A stretch of 32,440 bases of DNA from assembly GCA_018238625.1 (NCBI GenBank), contig JABCSY010000045.1, positions 1 through 32,440 on the forward strand, in the 5' to 3' direction. A program made the position numbers and the translations under genes. The stretch comes from Promethearchaeota archaeon. GTDB lineage: Archaea > Asgardarchaeota > Lokiarchaeia > Sigyniarchaeales > SOKP01. Under the pieces are notes generated by a model, which was given only the letters and a program-made list of their open reading frames with translations, was not told where the DNA came from and searched no databases. Of this stretch, positions 682 through 9,822 are shown piece by piece (the first letter of the stretch is position 1; each line of letters opens with the position of its first letter).

Positions 682-1905
<1,224 letters not shown>

Positions 1906-1984
1906 CGAAAAAATTTTATATTATTGTGAATTAATTTTATTACTTTATTATTGATAACTAAAACGAATACAATTTGTAAAGACG

Positions 1985-2362
1985 ATGGCAAGGAAAAGCA
2001 AAAAGATGGTCGAATCACTCGATTTATCTCGAAAGAAAGTTAAGGTATTTGATGTCGATACGAATATTAAAGTTGCATATAAAACAGGTAAATTGATATT
2101 TGGTAAATCGCAAGTTCTTAGTCAACTAAGGCAAAAACCCTTTAAGATGCTTATCCTCGCAAACAACTGTCCGGCCGAATTGGACGCTCAATTAAGTTAT
2201 TATAACTCTCTTATGAACGATAATCTCTTCGTCCACAGATATCATGGCTCTTCGTGGGAGTTAGGTATAGCAATGGGCAAACCTTATATGATCTCTATTG
2301 TTGGAGTCAACGATTTTGGAGATTCCGACTTATTATCTTTAAAAACCAAAAGTAATCAATAA
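1985..2362 (+). CDS. rpl30e: 50S ribosomal protein L30e
   Basis: KTGKLIFG, LILANNCP, GSSWELGIAMGKPY; canonical position between rpoA2 and nusA. Confidence 0.95.
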   Translation: MARKSKKMVESLDLSRKKVKVFDVDTNIKVAYKTGKLIFGKSQVLSQLRQKPFKMLILANNCPAELDAQLSYYNSLMNDNLFVHRYHGSSWELGIAMGKPYMISIVGVNDFGDSDLLSLKTKSNQ

Positions 2363-2381
2363 ATACGTGGAATAAAAAAAT

Positions 2382-2855
2382 ATGTTACGCAAAAGGATTA
2401 AGCTCGACCGTCAATCAATGGAATTAATTTCGCTGTTTAATAATATCTCCGGTGCGATTATTAAAGATTGTTTATTCTTTGAATCCCCAGAAAATAATAC
2501 TGAGATAATCATTTTCTTAGTTAAAAAAGAAGATGTAGGGAAAGCAATTGGTAAAGCTGGAGAACACGTGAAGGACCTCATGGCTAAACTTCAAAAAAAG
2601 ATCGATGTTATCCCTTGGTCAGAAAATCTAGAGCAATTTATTCAATTTATTTTAAATACTACTAAGAATTCAATTCAAGTTCAAAATATTGAAATTAAGG
2701 CAAGTAGAAACGAAAAGAAAACCGTGATTATTTCCGTACGACCTCAAGATCGTGGAAAAGCAATAGGTAAAGAAGGTTCTATGATAAGGAAAATTAAATT
2801 ACTTGTTTTACGCCACTTTGAGGTTGATAACGTAATAATCAACACAAAAAATTAA
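2382..2855 (+). CDS. nusA: Archaeal NusA-like transcription factor (two KH domains)
   Basis: Two GKAIGKxG KH motifs; conserved position in the rpo-str cluster. Confidence 0.95.
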   Translation: MLRKRIKLDRQSMELISLFNNISGAIIKDCLFFESPENNTEIIIFLVKKEDVGKAIGKAGEHVKDLMAKLQKKIDVIPWSENLEQFIQFILNTTKNSIQVQNIEIKASRNEKKTVIISVRPQDRGKAIGKEGSMIRKIKLLVLRHFEVDNVIINTKN

Positions 2856-2956
2856 ATACCTAATTCTCTAAATTCAAAAATTTTAAGTTTAAAGAGATAT
2901 TTAAATCATATAATAAATAAATAAGAACAAATATAAAATTTATAAGGTATCTCTCA

Positions 2957-3391
2957 ATGGGAAAAACCAAAGGATTGTATGCAGCTCGTAAGTTGAAAAT
3001 GAATCGTAAGAAATTTCGATGGAGCAAAACAAAGTATAAAAGAACGAAGCTTAAATTAAAACAGAAAGTTGATCCCATGGAAGGGGCACCACAGGCGCTC
3101 GGTATCGTGTTACAAAAAGTAGGACGAGAAAGCAAACAACCTAACTCTGCTATTCGAAAGTGCGTACGCGTTCAGTTAAAAAAGAATGGCAAAACTATAA
3201 CTGCTTTTCTTCCTGGAGATGGCGCTCTGAACTTCATTGACGAACATGATAGGGTGATTGTTGAGGGCATTGGAGGCGCTAAAGGTCGAGCAGTAGGCGA
3301 TCTCCCCGGTGTAAGATGGCGGGTTGTGAAAGTAAACGGCGTATCACTTCATGCCTTGATTGCTGGTAAAGTGGAAAAACCAATGAGATAA
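2957..3391 (+). CDS. rps12: 30S ribosomal protein S12 (uS12)
   Basis: [15 protein letters not shown] and GDLPGVRW motifs. Confidence 0.99.
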
Positions 3392-3410
3392 TTTTCAGCA
3401 AGTGAAGATA

Positions 3411-4028
3411 ATGAGTAAAACAAAAAAAGACATTAAATTATTTAATAAATGGTCGTTTAACAACGTTGAAATTAAAGATTGGACCCTTGAACATTACATA
3501 AACTTAAGACCTGTTATCATTCCGCACACTGCGGGAAAGCACGAACATAAGCGTTTTTGGAAAACTACTAAAATTTCCATTGTCGAACGATTTGTTAACA
3601 GATTACTAGCACCTGGATTCATTGGTGGTAAAATTAAAGGACATAAGAGCTCGTACGGTTCAGGAAAAAAGAGTAAACTATTAAGGAGTTTAGAAGATGC
3701 GTTCACTTTGATAGAGTTGAATACAGGAGTGAATCCTATCCAAATTTTAATTGAAGCGATTTGCAATACGGCTCCAAGAGAAGAAACGACAAAGATTGCT
3801 CGAGGTGGGATCTCTTACGCGTCTGCTGTTGATATATCGCCACAGCGCCGAGTAGATTTAGCAATTAAATATTTAGTACAAGCTATTGGTGTAAGATCTC
3901 ACTCAAACGAACGACAATTTGCAGCGAATTTAGCTCAAGAATTAATATTAGCTTCGAAAGATAGCCAAGAATCAAGAGCCGTAAAAAGAAAAGACGAAAT
4001 TGAAAGGATAGCAGTATCAGCACGCTAA
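3411..4028 (+). CDS. rps7: 30S ribosomal protein S7 (uS7)
   Basis: KLFNKWS, NPIQIL..AI.NTAPREET, AVDISPQRRVDLA, ERIAVSAR; ATG 3411 preferred over GTG 3402. Confidence 0.98.
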   Translation: MSKTKKDIKLFNKWSFNNVEIKDWTLEHYINLRPVIIPHTAGKHEHKRFWKTTKISIVERFVNRLLAPGFIGGKIKGHKSSYGSGKKSKLLRSLEDAFTLIELNTGVNPIQILIEAICNTAPREETTKIARGGISYASAVDISPQRRVDLAIKYLVQAIGVRSHSNERQFAANLAQELILASKDSQESRAVKRKDEIERIAVSAR

Positions 4029-4308
4029 AAAGCCTTCAATTTGAAAACTTATTTTGTACTCTTTTTATTATTTATTACATACTTAATTTCAATAAAATCG
4101 TTTCTCTTTGTATTATAATTGCTATAAATCCTCTTTAAAGAGTCAGAACAAGAAATTCTTTTTGAAAATTAAAATCTGTATAATATTTTATCACCTACAT
4201 AATATCTATTCTCGTTTTGGTCTGTAAAATTCCTAATTATTATATACCTCTTAAGTATAATATTTAATTAAGCAGAAATAATGATATTCAAGATTTACTG
4301 AACTTAAA

Positions 4309-6327
4309 GTGGATTCCGACAAAAATATTGATGTTTTAGAGAAACAGCTAAAGATACTAAGTCAAAAAATAAGAATTGACATTTTGAAAAAATTAAATGT
4401 CAGTCGTAATCCTTTATCTTATTCAAGGCTTCAAAAAGAAGTTTTAGGTGCAAATCCAAACTCAGTTAACTTCTCTTTTCATTTAAAAGCGCTAAAAAAG
4501 GGTAATTTAATATCAACTTCCGAGAGCGGTTATACTTTAAGCACATTAGGGAAACAAATTTTAAAAACTATTGTATCAATGGAACAAATCCTCAACGATC
4601 AAAACGTACCAATTATGATAAGGACTTCAAAATACTCGAAAGAGCCTTTTAATGCAAATAAAATCGAAGATTACTTGATTAAGGAAGGACAATTGGAGAA
4701 AATTCTTGCAAAACAAATTTCAAAGGAAGTAAAAGAGCGCCTTTCTAAAGCCAAAATTGGTTACTTAACAACACCCTTAATGAGGGAATATATTAACGCA
4801 ATTCTATTAGAAAATGGATTAGAAGAAATAAGGCACAAATTAACTCGATTAGGGACTCCCCCTTTCGAAGCTTTTAGTTTTTTTGACAGAAGCTTCAACC
4901 CCGATCAGTTTATCTCTAAGTTAGGATCCGATGTGTCTGAGCAATTTCTTCTGTTAAATTTGCTCCCTAAAAACTTAGCGGACCTATATTTATCAGGAGA
5001 GATAGCTTTGTTAAACTTAAATTATTGGAGTTTAAGACCCTTAGGCTTCTATCTTGACTCAAAATCGATCGTAGAGTTTATCACCAAGCAATCGTCGATT
5101 AATCTTAATAAACTAGATAAAAATAGAGACTTAATTAATTTAGTAATGAATTTTTTTGATTTTTTAACGAAATTCAAACCCTATTTTTCTGAAGATATCT
5201 TGTTAGGTAATTTTAATAGTTCTTTTTTATCTTATTTTAATTCTAACAAAAATTCATCTTCAAATATTCTTAATATTATAACTTCCCAAATTTTAAAACT
5301 CAGTAATAGACAATACGACGAGAAACCTCACCTTTCTTTAGAACTCTCCTTTTTGAATAATATTAAACAGAATAATGCAGAAAATTCGAAAACTCAATTT
5401 GACAACGACTTTTTAAAAAGTTTAATGTATCAAATTAGCCTAAATAATGATCTCATATGTCCTCTAATGCTATACGATTATTCCGACTTTCTTAGCTCTA
5501 TAAGCGAGTATGATAATTTAATAAAAAATCTCACTTCAAGTTATCGCAACAATGTTATTTTCTATAAGAACAATCATTCAAACTTACTCAATTCAACGCT
5601 TACAAATGTCCACAAGCTCAATAAAAACGACGAAGAAAGAAATAAAATCGTTTTAGATAAAGTTCTGATAAATTTACATATGATTGCTCAAAAATCTAAT
5701 CAAATAGATGATGTTTTTTTCGAAAGTTTACACGAAAAAATAGATTCTGTGTTTGAATTCTTTGTTAATAAAAAAAAATTAGTAGTTCGAAAATTAAAAT
5801 CTTCAATTCATTGGAAGAAAATAATTTCCGAATTTTTTGAGCCGAAAAATGGTGATTGGACTGACGAGGCTTTAAAATCCATTAGTTTTTTTGGCTTAAA
5901 TGAAGCTGTAAAAACGCATTGTGGTATTGAAATAGATAGGAACATAAATAGCGAGATTTTTGCCAAAAAAGTATTAAATTTTATGATAGATATTATTGAC
6001 GAAAATAATCAACGAGAGCATGGAAACTATGTTTTTACTCAACCTCATAACGACAATTACCTATTTAACAAAGGATATAATAGTAAACTTAGTTTGGGAG
6101 ATGATATTAAACGTTACAACATAGAATTGATTAGAACTGATTCAAGATTATCGCTCGAGAGAAAAATTGAACTTCATAAGAAATTCGAAAAAATTCTAAA
6201 CGGAGGGAGCATCTTTACGTGTAATTTAAATGACTTACATTTGCTTGAACTTATAGAGATTTTAATAAATTCAAAATTAAACGCGTTTTCAATTAGAACT
6301 GAAAAAGAAGCGTTTACTACGAATTAG
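4309..6327 (+). CDS. Winged-HTH (ArsR-like) + ATP-cone + degenerate class III ribonucleotide reductase (NrdD-like) fusion; probable nucleotide-sensing regulator
   Basis: wHTH (KIRIDILKKL...FSFHLKALKKGNLI...GYTLSTLG); ATP cone (IRTSKYSKEPFNANKI...LTTPLMREYINAILLENGL..RLG); NrdD-like blocks (LLPKNLADLYLSGEI, INLHMIA, SISFFGLNEAV, LNGGSI); no C-terminal Zn ribbon or RxxGY motif. Confidence 0.8.
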   Translation: MDSDKNIDVLEKQLKILSQKIRIDILKKLNVSRNPLSYSRLQKEVLGANPNSVNFSFHLKALKKGNLISTSESGYTLSTLGKQILKTIVSMEQILNDQNVPIMIRTSKYSKEPFNANKIEDYLIKEGQLEKILAKQISKEVKERLSKAKIGYLTTPLMREYINAILLENGLEEIRHKLTRLGTPPFEAFSFFDRSFNPDQFISKLGSDVSEQFLLLNLLPKNLADLYLSGEIALLNLNYWSLRPLGFYLDSKSIVEFITKQSSINLNKLDKNRDLINLVMNFFDFLTKFKPYFSEDILLGNFNSSFLSYFNSNKNSSSNILNIITSQILKLSNRQYDEKPHLSLELSFLNNIKQNNAENSKTQFDNDFLKSLMYQISLNNDLICPLMLYDYSDFLSSISEYDNLIKNLTSSYRNNVIFYKNNHSNLLNSTLTNVHKLNKNDEERNKIVLDKVLINLHMIAQKSNQIDDVFFESLHEKIDSVFEFFVNKKKLVVRKLKSSIHWKKIISEFFEPKNGDWTDEALKSISFFGLNEAVKTHCGIEIDRNINSEIFAKKVLNFMIDIIDENNQREHGNYVFTQPHNDNYLFNKGYNSKLSLGDDIKRYNIELIRTDSRLSLERKIELHKKFEKILNGGSIFTCNLNDLHLLELIEILINSKLNAFSIRTEKEAFTTN

Positions 6328-7247
6328 TCTGCTAAAAGTTCTGCTAAAATCGCCTTTCTCATAGGGATTCCATAGTAAGTTTGTTTGAAGTAAATTGCTT
6401 TTGGTGAATCATCAATATCAGGAGAAATTTCTGTAACTCTGGGTAGAGGATGCATAATTTTAAAATCGTCTTTAGTTTCCTTTAAATCTTTTTTTGTAAA
6501 TACATATATATTTTTAACTCTATCGTATTCTTCAACGTCAGCAAACCTCTCTTTCTGAATTCTAGTAATGTAGAGAACATCCAAAACATTTAAGATATCT
6601 CGATATTTTTCAATTTCTTTATATTTTGCATGTCGTTGCCGTAAGAAATCCTTGTCTCTTTTTCGCATCATTAGCTCTTTAGGACTTATAAAATAGATAT
6701 TTACATCATAATTTGAAAGTAATATCGACAGAGAATGAACTGTCCTTCCGAATTTTAGGTCGCCCATTATCCCAATATTTAAACCGTCTAACTTACGGCC
6801 CTCTTCTGTAATCGTTAATAAATCTAACAAAGCTTGAGTTGGGTGCTCACCGCTCCCTGATCCCGCGTTTATAATTGGTATTTTTGCAAATTTTGAGGCA
6901 AGTCTTGCTGCTCCTTCTAAATTATGTCTCATGACAATACCATCGCAATAATTTTCTACGGTTCGAATGGTGTCTGCGATGCTTTCTCCTTTCTTTGTAG
7001 AAGAGACATCACCAGAATGGAAGCCTATTACGCTCCCCCCTAATCGATGCATTGCTGATTCAAAGCTTAAACGAGTTCTAGTTGAGGGTTCAAAAAATAA
7101 AGTCGCTAAAATTTTGCCCTTAAGGAGTTCTGAATTCTTCTTATTATGAATCATTTCCTTGGCTTTTTTTAAGATGTGATCGATATCTTCTCGCGAAAAA
7201 TCTTTTGCGGATATGATTCCTTCCCTAAATTTCTCTTTGAATGACAT
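6324..7247 (-). CDS. pyrB: Aspartate carbamoyltransferase catalytic subunit
   Basis: FFEPSTRTRLSFE, HPTQALLD, GDLKFGRTVHSL, RIQKER, MHPLPR; ATG 7247 preferred over TTG 7259. Confidence 0.98.
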   Translation of the reverse strand: MSFKEKFREGIISAKDFSREDIDHILKKAKEMIHNKKNSELLKGKILATLFFEPSTRTRLSFESAMHRLGGSVIGFHSGDVSSTKKGESIADTIRTVENYCDGIVMRHNLEGAARLASKFAKIPIINAGSGSGEHPTQALLDLLTITEEGRKLDGLNIGIMGDLKFGRTVHSLSILLSNYDVNIYFISPKELMMRKRDKDFLRQRHAKYKEIEKYRDILNVLDVLYITRIQKERFADVEEYDRVKNIYVFTKKDLKETKDDFKIMHPLPRVTEISPDIDDSPKAIYFKQTYYGIPMRKAILAELLAD

Positions 7248-7396
7248 AATTCTTAACAAAAGTTTTAATAAAATTAGGTTATTACTACTTAAATTATTTT
7301 TTATCTATTTCTTTAAAAGAGTTATACAGAACTAATAAAATTTAAAATTTATAAATAATTAATTAGTTTAATTAAAAATTTGTAGTTGTTTGAAAA

Positions 7397-7678
7397 ATGA
7401 AATTTCCACGTACGATAAATCGGTATTGCCCAAATTGTCGCGCTCATAAAAAGCACAACGTGACGCTCTATAAGAAAGGGAAGGAAAGAGCGATGAACCA
7501 TGGACGAAGACGCTTAGAAAGAAAGAAGAAAGGCTACGGTAGCTTTCCAAAAGAAATCTTCCATAAGAATGCTAAAATGAATAAAAGATCTCTGCCAATA
7601 TTAGAATGTTCTGAATGTGGTAAAAAGCATTATTCAAAATCATACCGAGTAAAAAAATTCGAATTACAAGAAGTATAA
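7397..7678 (+). CDS. rpl44e: 50S ribosomal protein L44e (eL42)
   Basis: RYCPNCRAHKKH...KGYG...LECSECGK zinc ribbon. Confidence 0.96.
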   Translation: MKFPRTINRYCPNCRAHKKHNVTLYKKGKERAMNHGRRRLERKKKGYGSFPKEIFHKNAKMNKRSLPILECSECGKKHYSKSYRVKKFELQEV

Positions 7679-7692
7679 AACTGTGAGAAATT

Positions 7693-7899
7693 ATGCCAAA
7701 GAAAAAAAGACCAGATGATTTAATTCCCTATCCAAAAAGTAGGTTTTTACGCGTTAAATGTTTAAATTGTGGCAATCAACAAATAATTTTTGGGTGTTCT
7801 GCTACAGATGTGGAATGTTTAGTATGTGGAAAAACATTGCTTCAATCTACTGGTGGTAAAGCACGAATTCTAACGAAGATTTTAGAAGTGCTTTCCTAA
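7693..7899 (+). CDS. rps27e: 30S ribosomal protein S27e
   Basis: [20 protein letters not shown]...CLVCG...TGGKA. Confidence 0.97.
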
Positions 7900-8015
7900 A
7901 TAAGACTAATTCAATAATCTCTTTTTATAGATCTATCCGTTCCTTTAAAAATATTCAATAGAAAATATTTTATTTTAATTTCTATTTTCATCAATAAAAC
8001 ATAAGGTATATTAAA

Positions 8016-8972
8016 ATGATTAAGATTTTTAGCGAAAAATTTGACGAGGATATCGAAATTGGTGAATTAGCTAATTTCATTTACAGAGTAAGAAAAGATA
8101 ATAATTTCTTAGGAGATCAAACGATAGAATCAATAAAAGAAGAGCTAATAGAAACAAGGAATTCGTATGATTTTCTCCTATTTTATGCCTATATTAATGC
8201 TAAGTTAGTAGGATTACTTCTCTTAAATATAAACACTCCTGGATTTGGATTTATTTGGGATTGGTATCCATATGTGGTAGCAGGACCTAAAGAAGATTTA
8301 GTAGCAATTGAATTATTAAAGAAGTGTATCGAATATACTGGTAGAGATATTGATAGATTCGAAGTCGCTTTTACAATTGAGACAGAACAAGATAAGACGC
8401 GATATATTCAACATTCTAAATGGTTTGAAGCATTAAATTTTTATCTAATCGCAGAAGAAGCAGTTATGGAATTAACTCTGGAAAATATAGAATTTAAACC
8501 TCTTCCCTTTCCTGAAAATATTGATCTTAAATCAATTAAAGATGCTGATTTGAACGATTTAGTCGATTGTGCCTATGAAGTATTTAACACGAGCCAAGAT
8601 ACAATATTTCTCGATCTTGATGAAGTACAGAAACAAGTTATGGTAAATAAGTATTTTGATACTTCTAAAAAACCTATTTTTGAAGACGCTTCAATAATCC
8701 TAATGAAGGGTAGAGAAGTTATAGGATTTGTAGTTGTAAATCCTGATGGTAACGAAGCGGAAATAAGATCGTTTGGAATTAAACCTAAATATAGAAATAA
8801 AGGATTAGGAAAGAACCTATTAGTACTGAGTTTAAACATATTAATGAAAAATGGCTTTAAAGTGGTTTTATTAGATGTTACTTTAGATAATAAACCTGCC
8901 ATTGGAGTTTATTCAAAATTGGGCTTTAAAATATCATCTACATCTAATTTATATGGATTAACCTGTGATTAA
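8016..8972 (+). CDS. GNAT family N-acetyltransferase (probably two GNAT domains)
   Basis: C-terminal motif A GIKPKYRNKGLGKNL and motif B NKPAIGVYSKLGF; length fits two GNAT folds. Confidence 0.88.
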   Translation: MIKIFSEKFDEDIEIGELANFIYRVRKDNNFLGDQTIESIKEELIETRNSYDFLLFYAYINAKLVGLLLLNINTPGFGFIWDWYPYVVAGPKEDLVAIELLKKCIEYTGRDIDRFEVAFTIETEQDKTRYIQHSKWFEALNFYLIAEEAVMELTLENIEFKPLPFPENIDLKSIKDADLNDLVDCAYEVFNTSQDTIFLDLDEVQKQVMVNKYFDTSKKPIFEDASIILMKGREVIGFVVVNPDGNEAEIRSFGIKPKYRNKGLGKNLLVLSLNILMKNGFKVVLLDVTLDNKPAIGVYSKLGFKISSTSNLYGLTCD

Positions 8973-8987
8973 CATTAAAACTTTTCA

Positions 8988-9009
8988 TCGTGAAACCACT
9001 CTTTCACGA
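8988..9009. repeat. 8-bp perfect inverted repeat (hairpin or binding site) just after the GNAT gene
   Basis: TCGTGAAA-ccactc-TTTCACGA. Confidence 0.5.
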
Positions 9010-9185
9010 AGATCATTATATTTAGAGCCAAAATAAATCTAATATTTTCAAATAATTATCAGATTTAATTTCATTTCAATAAATCCAATTTCATGCTCGG
9101 TATCAACCAAGCCAATTGTTCGTACAGACATATTGAAAAATTCGATCTTGAAAGTATCTGAAATCTATAAAACAAAAATTGATTT

Positions 9186-9245
9186 CCAAAAATTTATATA
9201 CTGTGAGTAACTTAGTATTCATAAAGTAGTATAAAATGAATACTA
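9186..9245 (+). promoter_or_regulatory. Putative BRE/TATA box followed by a palindromic operator, likely the PadR autoregulatory site
   Basis: CCAAAAATTTATATA at 9186-9200; TAGTATTCAT-N13-ATGAATACTA at 9213-9245, which includes TAGTAT-N7-ATACTA at 9227-9245. Confidence 0.65.
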
Positions 9246-9285
9246 TTCTTGCACTAAAAATTCTAAGAAAAAACAGAGATGAGAT

Positions 9286-9822
9286 ATGTATATGATAAGA
9301 AGAGTTAAGGAATTTGGCACACAAGCTTTAATCGCATCGCAAGAAATCAGAGATTACATAGAAAAGTTTGAAAGCGAAATAAATCGTGGAATCAGTACAT
9401 TATGCATCCTGGCAATAATTGATAGAGCTGAAAATGGAAAGATTCATGGATACGCAATTTTAAAGAATCTTGAAGAGGAGACTAATGAAATGATGGTTAT
9501 AGAAGAAGGTACCTTGTATCCTTTGTTAAGAAAACTCGAAAATAACGGGATACTTAAATCTGAGAAGAAGATCGTGGATAACCGAATGAGAAAGGTATAT
9601 TCGATCACTGAACGCGGAGATAAAATATATAACCATTTATCGGGGTTCTATAGCAAGTTAACAGAGGCTATTTCTCCATTGCTAGATATTAATGTTCGCT
9701 TGAAGGATCATTATTTATATTGCCCAAACTGCGCTAATAAAATCGATTTAAACGAAAATGAGATACAATTTTGCGATATGTGTGGATTAAATGTACAAGA
9801 ATTAAGAGAAAGGAGGTTATGA
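9286..9822 (+). CDS. PadR family transcriptional regulator with C-terminal zinc ribbon
   Basis: HGYAIL, EEGTLYPLLRKLE..G, RKVYSITERG; C-terminal CPNC...CDMC. Confidence 0.92.
   Translation: MYMIRRVKEFGTQALIASQEIRDYIEKFESEINRGISTLCILAIIDRAENGKIHGYAILKNLEEETNEMMVIEEGTLYPLLRKLENNGILKSEKKIVDNRMRKVYSITERGDKIYNHLSGFYSKLTEAISPLLDINVRLKDHYLYCPNCANKIDLNENEIQFCDMCGLNVQELRERRL

Follow-up and report, generated by a model that had tools for sequence, protein, structure and literature searches.

A ribonucleotide reductase pseudoenzyme fused to a winged helix in Lokiarchaeia, a candidate nucleotide-sensing regulator of DNA-synthesis genes

The stretch of DNA analysed here, hereafter the window, comprises 32,440 nucleotides (nt) of contig JABCSY010000045.1 (positions 1 to 32,440, forward strand; assembly GCA_018238625.1) from a Promethearchaeota archaeon of the class Lokiarchaeia. 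At 4309..6327 (+), it carries an uninterrupted open reading frame (ORF) of 672 amino acids (aa) with a GTG start, having three parts: an ArsR/SmtB-like winged helix-turn-helix (wHTH) at 4348..4572 (+; aa 14-88), an ATP-cone-like domain at 4612..4827 (+; aa 102-173) and a barrel derived from NrdD, the class III ribonucleotide reductase (RNR), at 4864..6297 (+; aa 186-663). The barrel is devoid of the thiyl Cys, HxH, NLPR, PxE, Zn ribbon and glycyl-radical loop. A previous sequence-only reading of the window had proposed that this gene encodes an RNR pseudoenzyme turned into a transcription factor that senses nucleotides, with a convergent pyrB gene overlapping it by 4 nt. The overlap with pyrB, located at 6324..7259 (-), was confirmed and belongs to this strain only, as most orthologues have 663-665 aa and end 8-35 nt before pyrB.

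Regarding the domains, the wHTH and the class III RNR-like barrel of that reading are both recognized by curated families: DUF7347 (PF24038) covers aa 14-88 with 43.2 bits (E 4.6e-11), above the Pfam gathering score of 27.6, and NRDD (PF13597) aligns aa 447-659 with profile positions 277-501 of 562 at 55.3 bits (E 6.4e-15; Pfam cut-off 26.2). The NCBIfam ArsR/SmtB family (NF033788) gives 21.3 bits (E 1.7e-4), under its cut-off of 55. The predicted recognition helix, NFSFHLKALKKGNLI, is shaped like that of ArsR together with the beginning of the wing, following a SxHLxxLxxxGLI-type motif, and an alignment of 33 family sequences shows N54, S56, F57, H58 and L59 to be invariant; the wHTH is the putative DNA-binding part. 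In the same alignment, R105, T106, S107, Y109, E112, Y152, T154, P156, R159, E160 and N163 of the ATP-cone-like domain are invariant or nearly so and K118 is nearly invariant, and nucleotides are its putative ligands. Taken whole, the wHTH, the cone-like domain, aa 198-244 and the linker LTRLGTPP hardly vary, whereas aa 250-445, the stretch where the finger loop is expected, is variable with many indels.

The altered catalytic motifs quoted by the sequence-only reading are all found in the translation, among them GEIALLNLNYWSLRPLGFY, INLHMIAQ and TQPHNDNY, and their intact counterparts are found in the active NrdD of the same genome, which reads GDIHVHMLRYFDLRPFCQEW, SQCCRKF, NLPRYA, QPSESS, CPSC..CPQC and SRVTGYY at the corresponding places and also carries GDIHVHM and RPFC. 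The CCR and RxxGY motifs of this active enzyme align with those of the Thermotoga maritima NrdD, and the columns of the thiyl Cys, CCR in both, are occupied by T and L in the window protein, which has three Cys in all and no conserved Cys in aa 257-445. By BLASTP, the protein aligns with its own NrdD in two blocks, both at 28% identity (113-256 with 37-188, E 1e-14; 449-665 with 421-649, E 9e-12), and its C-terminus falls at the point where the NrdD Zn ribbon starts, so the claimed stop before the ribbon and the RxxGY loop stands. The NCBIfam equivalog of NrdD (TIGR02487) scores 46.5 bits, far under its cut-off of 326.35, and a whole-protein sequence search of the PDB returned nothing meaningful. 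Judged by its residues, the window protein is not an active NrdD, none of four defining features being present. At aa 537-538 (nt 5917-5922), a His-Cys pair lies in a KxHCGIExDR context, H537 being nearly invariant and C538 invariant among 33 short-form sequences, and the active NrdD has Met-Thr at this position.

The AlphaFold2 model of the protein, built on 33 family sequences, has a mean predicted local distance difference test (pLDDT) of 80.3 and a predicted template modelling score (pTM) of 0.72. When compared to the PDB with Foldseek, all 25 matches listed at E <= 5.4e-10 are class III RNRs, headed by the enzyme of Prevotella copri (8p2c_A, E 2e-17, TMq 0.55) and including those of S. 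thermophilus, T. maritima and phage T4, with class I enzymes far behind. The model places the protein in the ten-stranded barrel fold of NrdD, in agreement with the sequence-only reading. A separate model of aa 1-190 (pLDDT 83.8) is closest to ArsR/SmtB-type repressors, among them DNA-bound NolR (4omy_A, TMt 0.72, root-mean-square deviation 2.9), ArsR (6j05), CzrA (1r1u), HlyU, BigR and the DNA-bound DNA-binding domain of CggR (7oyk), with weak E-values of about 0.03-0.1 for these structural matches.

The most conserved part of the barrel, 4870..5037 (+; aa 188-243), is also the predicted homodimer interface, and in NrdD this region holds the dimer interface and the allosteric specificity site. 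Invariant barrel residues in the 33-sequence alignment are G206, S210, L215, L216, L219, P220, D225, L234, L237, W240 and P244. For two copies of aa 186-672, the homodimer prediction gave an ipSAE of 0.75, compared to 0.00 for the best control, with at least 91% contact agreement between runs and pLDDT of at least 78; the mark used for a dimer is reached by 20 of 30 solved homo-pairs and by 1 of 23 single chains. The predicted contacts fall within 188-217, 238-243 and 276-292, and are scattered in 319-335 and 494-502. The modelled interface does match the conservation pattern of the barrel, even though this prediction may reflect likeness only, and not proof, because NrdD dimers have already been solved.

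The gene is widespread and maintained. A word-indexed search gave 487 database proteins at E <= 1e-3, and the best 120 of these, from Lokiarchaeota/Promethearchaeota, have 659-672 aa, are 57-100% identical and all carry PF24038 and PF13597. Within the window's own family, f1, a match was found in 133 of 134 other genomes, mostly full-length and with 39-90% identity, and phylum-wide in 258 of 400 genomes. The gene order is also preserved: of 30 loci, 29 have the convergent pyrB as a neighbour and 24 have S12-S7 upstream. The ratio of nonsynonymous to synonymous substitutions (dN/dS; Nei-Gojobori, eight close pairs) is 0.21-0.27 for the whole gene, lowest in the ATP-cone-like domain (0.04-0.24) and the N-terminal barrel (0.03-0.20) and highest in the C-terminal 80 residues (0.22-1.01). 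The pseudoenzyme gene is under purifying selection, as fits a retained, repurposed enzyme, which the sequence-only reading had supposed. Its evolution is faster than that of the active NrdD, the identity between genera being 39-55% for the pseudoenzyme and 80-96% across the family for NrdD.

An exhaustive search of representatives yielded 638 clusters at E <= 1e-3. Besides forms of about 650 aa, there are relatives of 700-800 aa that match from residue ~10, therefore including the wHTH. When 23 short and 89 long members were aligned with the active NrdD, a Cys at the two thiyl columns was present in 1/23 short and 3/89 long forms. The Pro and Arg of NLPR are lost in most short forms and retained in 69 and 64 of the 89 long ones, respectively; the four-Cys Zn ribbon is present in 57/89 long and 0/23 short forms, with gaps in all 23; and the RxxGY loop, as judged by eye, in 2/89 long and 0/23 short forms, with gaps at its columns in 21-22 of 23. 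By these counts, the radical Cys seems to have been lost earlier and more widely than the C-terminal domain, whose loss probably marks the Lokiarchaeal short form. The doubt raised previously, that close orthologues could retain the catalytic residues and the window gene be a local truncation, is answered by these counts and by the short form found in 133 of 134 f1 genomes. A search with the first 300 residues of one long form retrieved at least 2912 proteins, whose source names comprise several Asgard lineages and, in TACK, Methanomethylicia/Verstraetearchaeota and Bathyarchaeia. Their database labels are 'anaerobic ribonucleoside-triphosphate reductase', 'ArsR family' and 'helix-turn-helix domain-containing protein'.

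The host genome (4.29 Mb, 97.9% complete, 7.6% contaminated) encodes real RNRs elsewhere, answering the question of a separate intact enzyme. The active NrdD, with 709 aa, is located on contig C24 (L001:1138-3267), and its activase NrdG, over the NCBIfam cut-off, on contig C156, which bears out that no activase is near the window gene. The class II enzyme, NrdJ, has an ATP-cone-like N-terminus, is interrupted by an intein and occupies a 1251-aa frame (C201:34977-38705, -; loci L087/L089); the PF02867 profile search of the genome gave no class I/II RNR, missing this intein-split gene. The bacterial regulator NrdR (TIGR00244) is absent from the genome, its sole match being a lone ATP-cone ORF on contig C60, with 21.1 bits compared to a cut-off of 124.65. 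In the sister family f3, NrdJ is present in five of five genomes, while four of them have the fused pseudoenzyme and no real NrdD; these four are 89-93% complete, and their NrdD-family matches are only weak ones inside the fused ORFs. Consequently, the dead paralogue persists without NrdD, which is not its obligatory partner.

Several observations accompany these enzymes. NrdJ orthologues range from about 745 to 1600 aa, with an intein content that varies between genomes, and some NrdD genes lie in frames of 1214-1687 aa. A MazG-type nucleotide pyrophosphohydrolase of 105 aa (L001:3314-3631, +) begins 46 nt after nrdD, a pair that suggests a small operon for deoxynucleoside triphosphate (dNTP) hygiene. 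The stand-alone ATP-cone on C60 (L086:1501-1722; 84-aa frame) reaches 39.2 bits with the Pfam cone, above its cut-off, and shares its locus with an ArsR-like gene of 117 aa and a universal-stress-like gene; it may serve as another small sensor of nucleotides. A further NrdD paralogue, of a third kind, was seen in a sister genome of f1 (L176:1005-2813, -). It is 602 aa long and devoid of a wHTH, its N-terminus resembles an ATP-cone, and its barrel shares 52% identity with the active NrdD; it reads HIN for HVH and RPLS for RPFC, has no CCR and stops before the Zn ribbon and glycyl loop. Similar frames of ~600-630 aa exist in many f1 genomes and not in that of the window.

The pseudoenzyme gene and the RNR genes share a short sequence, CCGAYAAAA, whose presence at the pseudoenzyme, nrdD, nrdJ and orc1/cdc6 genes is new here. 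In the window, the box CCGACAAAA has its sole match at 4316..4324 (+), inside codons 3-5 of the pseudoenzyme gene, and it is present at the gene itself in 27 of 28 orthologous loci. In all 25 loci whose start lies 7 nt before the box or a one-mismatch variant of it, codon 3 ends in CC, although its residue varies (S, T or A) and TCC makes up 9% of the Ser codons elsewhere in these genes; the GAC following codon 3 is kept in the same 25 loci, GAC being 24% of the Asp codons elsewhere. Unusual codons hold the box inside the coding sequence. In the nrdD leader, 26 of 28 loci have CCGACAA roughly 86 nt ahead of the start codon, with TTCAGTTCATAtTrCCGACAAAA as its context. The nrdJ set, examined only after the motif had been defined on the nrdD and own-gene sets, carries CCGAYAAA between -46 and -52 in 18 of 30 loci and a second site, CGAYAAAA, between -248 and -284 in 14 of 29, often as a direct repeat with an 11-bp period such as ACGACAAAATTGCGACAAAA; this distal site sits about 35 nt after a CTTTAAATA element. 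Upstream of orc1/cdc6, CGAYAAAA was found in 13 of 29 orthologous loci, 11 of them at -179 to -204, and two loci have a palindromic pair of boxes, TTGTCGGAnTCGACAA.

Taken together, CGACAAAA is the best 8-mer common to the three RNR-related upstream sets, and the sharing of the box among RNR genes gives independent support for a regulatory role linked to RNR. As a control, upstream regions of other genes from the same genomes had the box in 0/28 cases for pyrB, 0/28 for L44e, 0/17 for S12 and 0/22 for S7 (95 in total), and CCGACAAAA occurs in the genome at a background rate of 0.001 for every 339 nt of sense strand. The window's own genome has 119 CCGAYAAAA sites, of which only 10 are sense-oriented upstream of a gene, and these include nrdD, nrdJ, the pseudoenzyme gene and one orc1/cdc6 gene. 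Others with such a site, namely an AMP-binding enzyme, an enoyl-CoA hydratase, a small GTPase and a TrmB-like regulator, were set aside as probable chance matches. Two near-identical copies at C7:42609 (+) and C74:9353 (-), running AAATTACACTCACCCGACAAAAA..CTCGGGCGGA, have the 9-mer inside a CCCGA/TCGGG hairpin and look like copies of some small structured repeat or RNA that has nothing to do with the RNR box.

Outside f1, the nrdJ upstream regions of f3 carry the box in either orientation, the long-form gene L123 of f3 has an inverted pair of boxes upstream and the gene L122 has CGACAAAA on the opposite strand. Near the starts of long forms from distant lineages (f9, f11, f21 and others), no CCGACAAAA was found, L123 of f3 excepted, and by this distribution the box may be restricted to the order. 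Rfam, searched with the three leaders, returned nothing at E <= 1, so that a known riboswitch or RNA motif does not explain the box. The f3 boxes in either orientation, the inverted pair of L123 and the orc1/cdc6 palindromes argue tentatively for recognition of the box as DNA rather than RNA.

Further upstream of the pseudoenzyme gene, a second conserved element, TTTTATCACCTACATAATATCTA, is located at 4186..4208 (+), approximately 30 nt before a TATA-like box. It is 19-23 nt long with the family consensus ATATCACCYACATAWTATC, an imperfect ATATC-N5-sATAT inverted repeat, and is found with at most two substitutions in 28 of 28 orthologous loci, mostly at -121/-122 from the start codon. In the genome, the full position weight matrix has a single site for it (30.0 bits vs 16.5 for the next). 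The predicted promoter element AAAATTCCTAATTATTATATA, of B recognition element/TATA type, follows at 4226..4246 (+), where AAAATTCCTAAwTnTTATATA is conserved across the aligned loci. In the predicted leader, a small upstream ORF of 6 codons (ATG..TGA) lies at 4281-4301 (+), with similar ones in the closest relatives and not family-wide, and the predicted start of the main ORF is GTG or TTG in 25 of 28 loci.

These data suggest, at about even odds in our judgement, that the gene encodes a nucleotide-sensing transcription factor of a DNA-synthesis regulon, similar to NrdR in its working and with an unrelated DNA-binding part. In this proposal, a catalytically dead paralogue of NrdD would have been turned into a transcription factor by retaining its nucleotide-reading and dimer-holding parts (the N-terminal helices of the barrel and the ATP-cone-like domain), losing everything required for radical chemistry and gaining an ArsR-like winged helix at the N-terminus. 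The dimer would bind boxes of the CGACAAAA type, placed within or directly behind the promoters of nrdD, nrdJ, the orc1/cdc6 gene and its own gene, and ATP/dATP, possibly dNTPs, at the retained allosteric sites would alter its conformation or oligomeric state. The supply of DNA precursors and the initiation of replication would then track the nucleotide pool. As to the sign of this regulation, repression is a guess from the positions of the boxes. The regulator interpretation of the sequence-only reading is supported, with binding of DNA, binding of nucleotides and an effect on transcription as its predicted parts. A bolder form of the proposal remains tentative and is held with clearly less confidence: that the protein is an archaeal counterpart of NrdR and a master regulator, a dead RNR that would read ATP/dATP/dNTP and control both RNR classes, its own gene and orc1/cdc6, with the Asgard and TACK relatives acting alike.

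Some results weigh against the regulator proposal. Concerning the sensor, the claimed ATP cone stands as a cone-like match at aa 102-173, and not as a certified one, since it scores 19.9 bits (E 1.1e-3), below the Pfam cut-off of 25.8, and has Ile in place of the cone's canonical first Lys; two longer relatives, P0153 and P0163, do pass that cut-off with 27.9 and 28.3 bits. Concerning the box, no genome-wide enrichment was found, as CCGACAAAA has 32 sites compared to a mean of 30 for 60 permuted 9-mers, and the tandem form with two mismatches, at 11 sites vs 0-29 for permuted ones, is not enriched in the own genome either. Membership of the regulon rests, consequently, on conservation across genomes and not on counts in a single one, and the compared genomes are related rather than independent, so that the k-of-n counts overstate the support. 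The upstream region of nrdG has no box. The f1 box is non-palindromic, whereas ArsR-type dimers usually prefer palindromes, and its place on the sense strand, past the predicted TATA boxes, would fit an RNA element too. As for expression, three RNA-labelled runs of the 23 listed were compared with the window. Two of them, X18 and X20, probably derive from DNA, and X19, the sole true metatranscriptome, covers 6228-7239, pyrB only, with the sequence of a relative that is 90-95% alike.

Binding of the CCGAYAAAA box by the pseudoenzyme itself is a prediction, and another factor, such as Orc1/Cdc6, may bind the box instead. This leads to the first alternative: the protein may be a nucleotide-sensing regulator while its box belongs to Orc1/Cdc6 or a cell-cycle regulator, with the true operator elsewhere, for example ATATCACC..TATC at 4186-4208. 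The pseudoenzyme gene would in that case be no more than one member of this DNA-synthesis regulon. This alternative is possible, if doubtful. The asymmetry of the f1 box and the presence of the box upstream of orc1/cdc6 suit it, and the element at 4186-4208, an imperfect inverted repeat of the type bound by ArsR dimers and placed upstream of the promoter in 28/28 loci, could be the true operator of the pseudoenzyme. However, that element has no comparable second site in the genome, and a regulator using it would control itself alone. In addition, the f3 long form L123 has an inverted pair of boxes upstream, and a box common to a regulator gene and its targets usually points to autoregulation, as described for NrdR (PMC9110341).

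A second and unlikely alternative is a role outside transcription, where the dead subunit would modulate or buffer RNR activity by pairing with NrdD, by sequestering effectors or by tethering dNTP synthesis to chromatin by means of its winged helix. Dead paralogues that regulate their active relatives occur in other enzyme families, and sister genomes do hold a second dead NrdD paralogue devoid of a wHTH; moreover, the best-conserved part of the barrel is the dimer interface, which heterodimers with NrdD would suit. Nevertheless, the identity to NrdD is just 28%, the ArsR-type recognition helix is conserved family-wide, and four of five f3 genomes combine the fused pseudoenzyme with NrdJ and no real NrdD. 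That the protein is still an enzyme, performing a new, non-radical nucleotide chemistry with the winged helix as an accessory, is highly improbable: the invariant His-Cys pair in KxHCGIExDR, missing from the active NrdD, speaks for it, but every known catalytic element has been lost, the mid-barrel with the finger loop is the most variable and indel-rich part, and no cofactor motif was seen in the protein. Finally, a decaying, functionless remnant of a duplicated nrdD, to which the missing catalytic residues and C-terminal domain and an evolution faster than that of NrdD (39-55% vs 80-85% identity) might point, is refuted by frames intact in nearly all family genomes and a dN/dS of about 0.25, together with the conserved synteny and promoter region and at least 2912 relatives across Asgard and TACK archaea.

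The surroundings of the gene belong to core information processing. Upstream, the window carries at 703-4028 an RNA polymerase Rpb1-domain-5 subunit, an L7Ae-family protein, a NusA-like KH protein, S12 and S7, and after pyrB, at 7397-9822, L44e, S27e, a GNAT acetyltransferase and a PadR-like regulator. One contig of the metatranscriptome X19 (6228-6706, -) extends ~100 nt beyond the pyrB stop, antisense into the 3' end of the pseudoenzyme gene, and hints, as a single contig, that convergent transcripts overlap there.

To our knowledge, the control of archaeal RNR genes is essentially unknown. In the openly available full-text literature searched, no such protein was described and no paper on DUF7347 was found. 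If the bolder form of the proposal is true, the supply of dNTPs would be coupled with the initiation of replication in those prokaryotes that stand nearest to eukaryotes. The shared box together with the fused dead RNR, apparently still capable of dimerising and of reading nucleotides, provides a concrete hypothesis of dNTP-pool sensing and cell-cycle-linked transcription in Asgard archaea. Moreover, metabolic reconstructions should not take the fused ORFs for class III RNRs, as four of five f3 genomes would otherwise be wrongly scored as NrdD-positive.

Comparing the pseudoenzyme with known systems, the closest in working is NrdR, the bacterial master repressor, which is rare in archaea (PMC9110341). 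NrdR couples an ATP-cone to a DNA-binding domain, and the pseudoenzyme has an ATP-cone-like domain next to its putative one. NrdR boxes accompany the promoters of every RNR operon and, in many cases, nrdR as well (PMC9110341), and here too a box is common to nrdD, nrdJ and the gene of the candidate regulator. Nonetheless, the DNA-binding part of NrdR is a Zn ribbon, whereas here it is an ArsR-like wHTH accompanied by a whole dead RNR barrel. The boxes also differ, as those of NrdR consist of two 16-bp palindromes (PMC13584703), and the present one is CCGAYAAAA, single or in an 11-bp direct repeat, unlike those paired palindromes. The window protein has no TIGR00244 match and is not a member of the NrdR family.

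With NrdD, of which it is clearly a paralogue, the protein shares the fold, a conserved region at the dimer interface and an N-terminal domain resembling an ATP-cone, differing in the absence of the thiyl Cys, HxH, NLPR, PxE, Zn ribbon and glycyl-radical loop and in its extra wHTH. With the ArsR/SmtB regulators, it shares the N-terminal fold and the recognition helix, its best structural matches being NolR, ArsR, CzrA, HlyU and BigR; however, a sensor module of 570 aa is fused here instead of short dimerisation helices, and the protein stays under the curated family cut-off (21.3 vs 55 bits). Another parallel is NrtR and other enzyme-derived transcription factors; NrtR is a wHTH regulator with a Nudix-like effector domain (PMC2330246), in which the fold of a pathway enzyme is reused as a ligand sensor. 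In NrtR, as proposed for the pseudoenzyme, a catalytic fold of the regulated pathway serves a wHTH regulator as its sensor, but the enzyme fold, the pathway and the domain order are different, and NrtR was validated by comparative genomics and experiment while the pseudoenzyme is known from sequence. A precedent for an RNR catalytic subunit kept in a non-catalytic state is given by the inactive homologues of the RNR large subunit in betaherpesviruses, such as M45; these are class I homologues acting in host cell-death signalling, without a DNA-binding domain or a link to RNR regulation.

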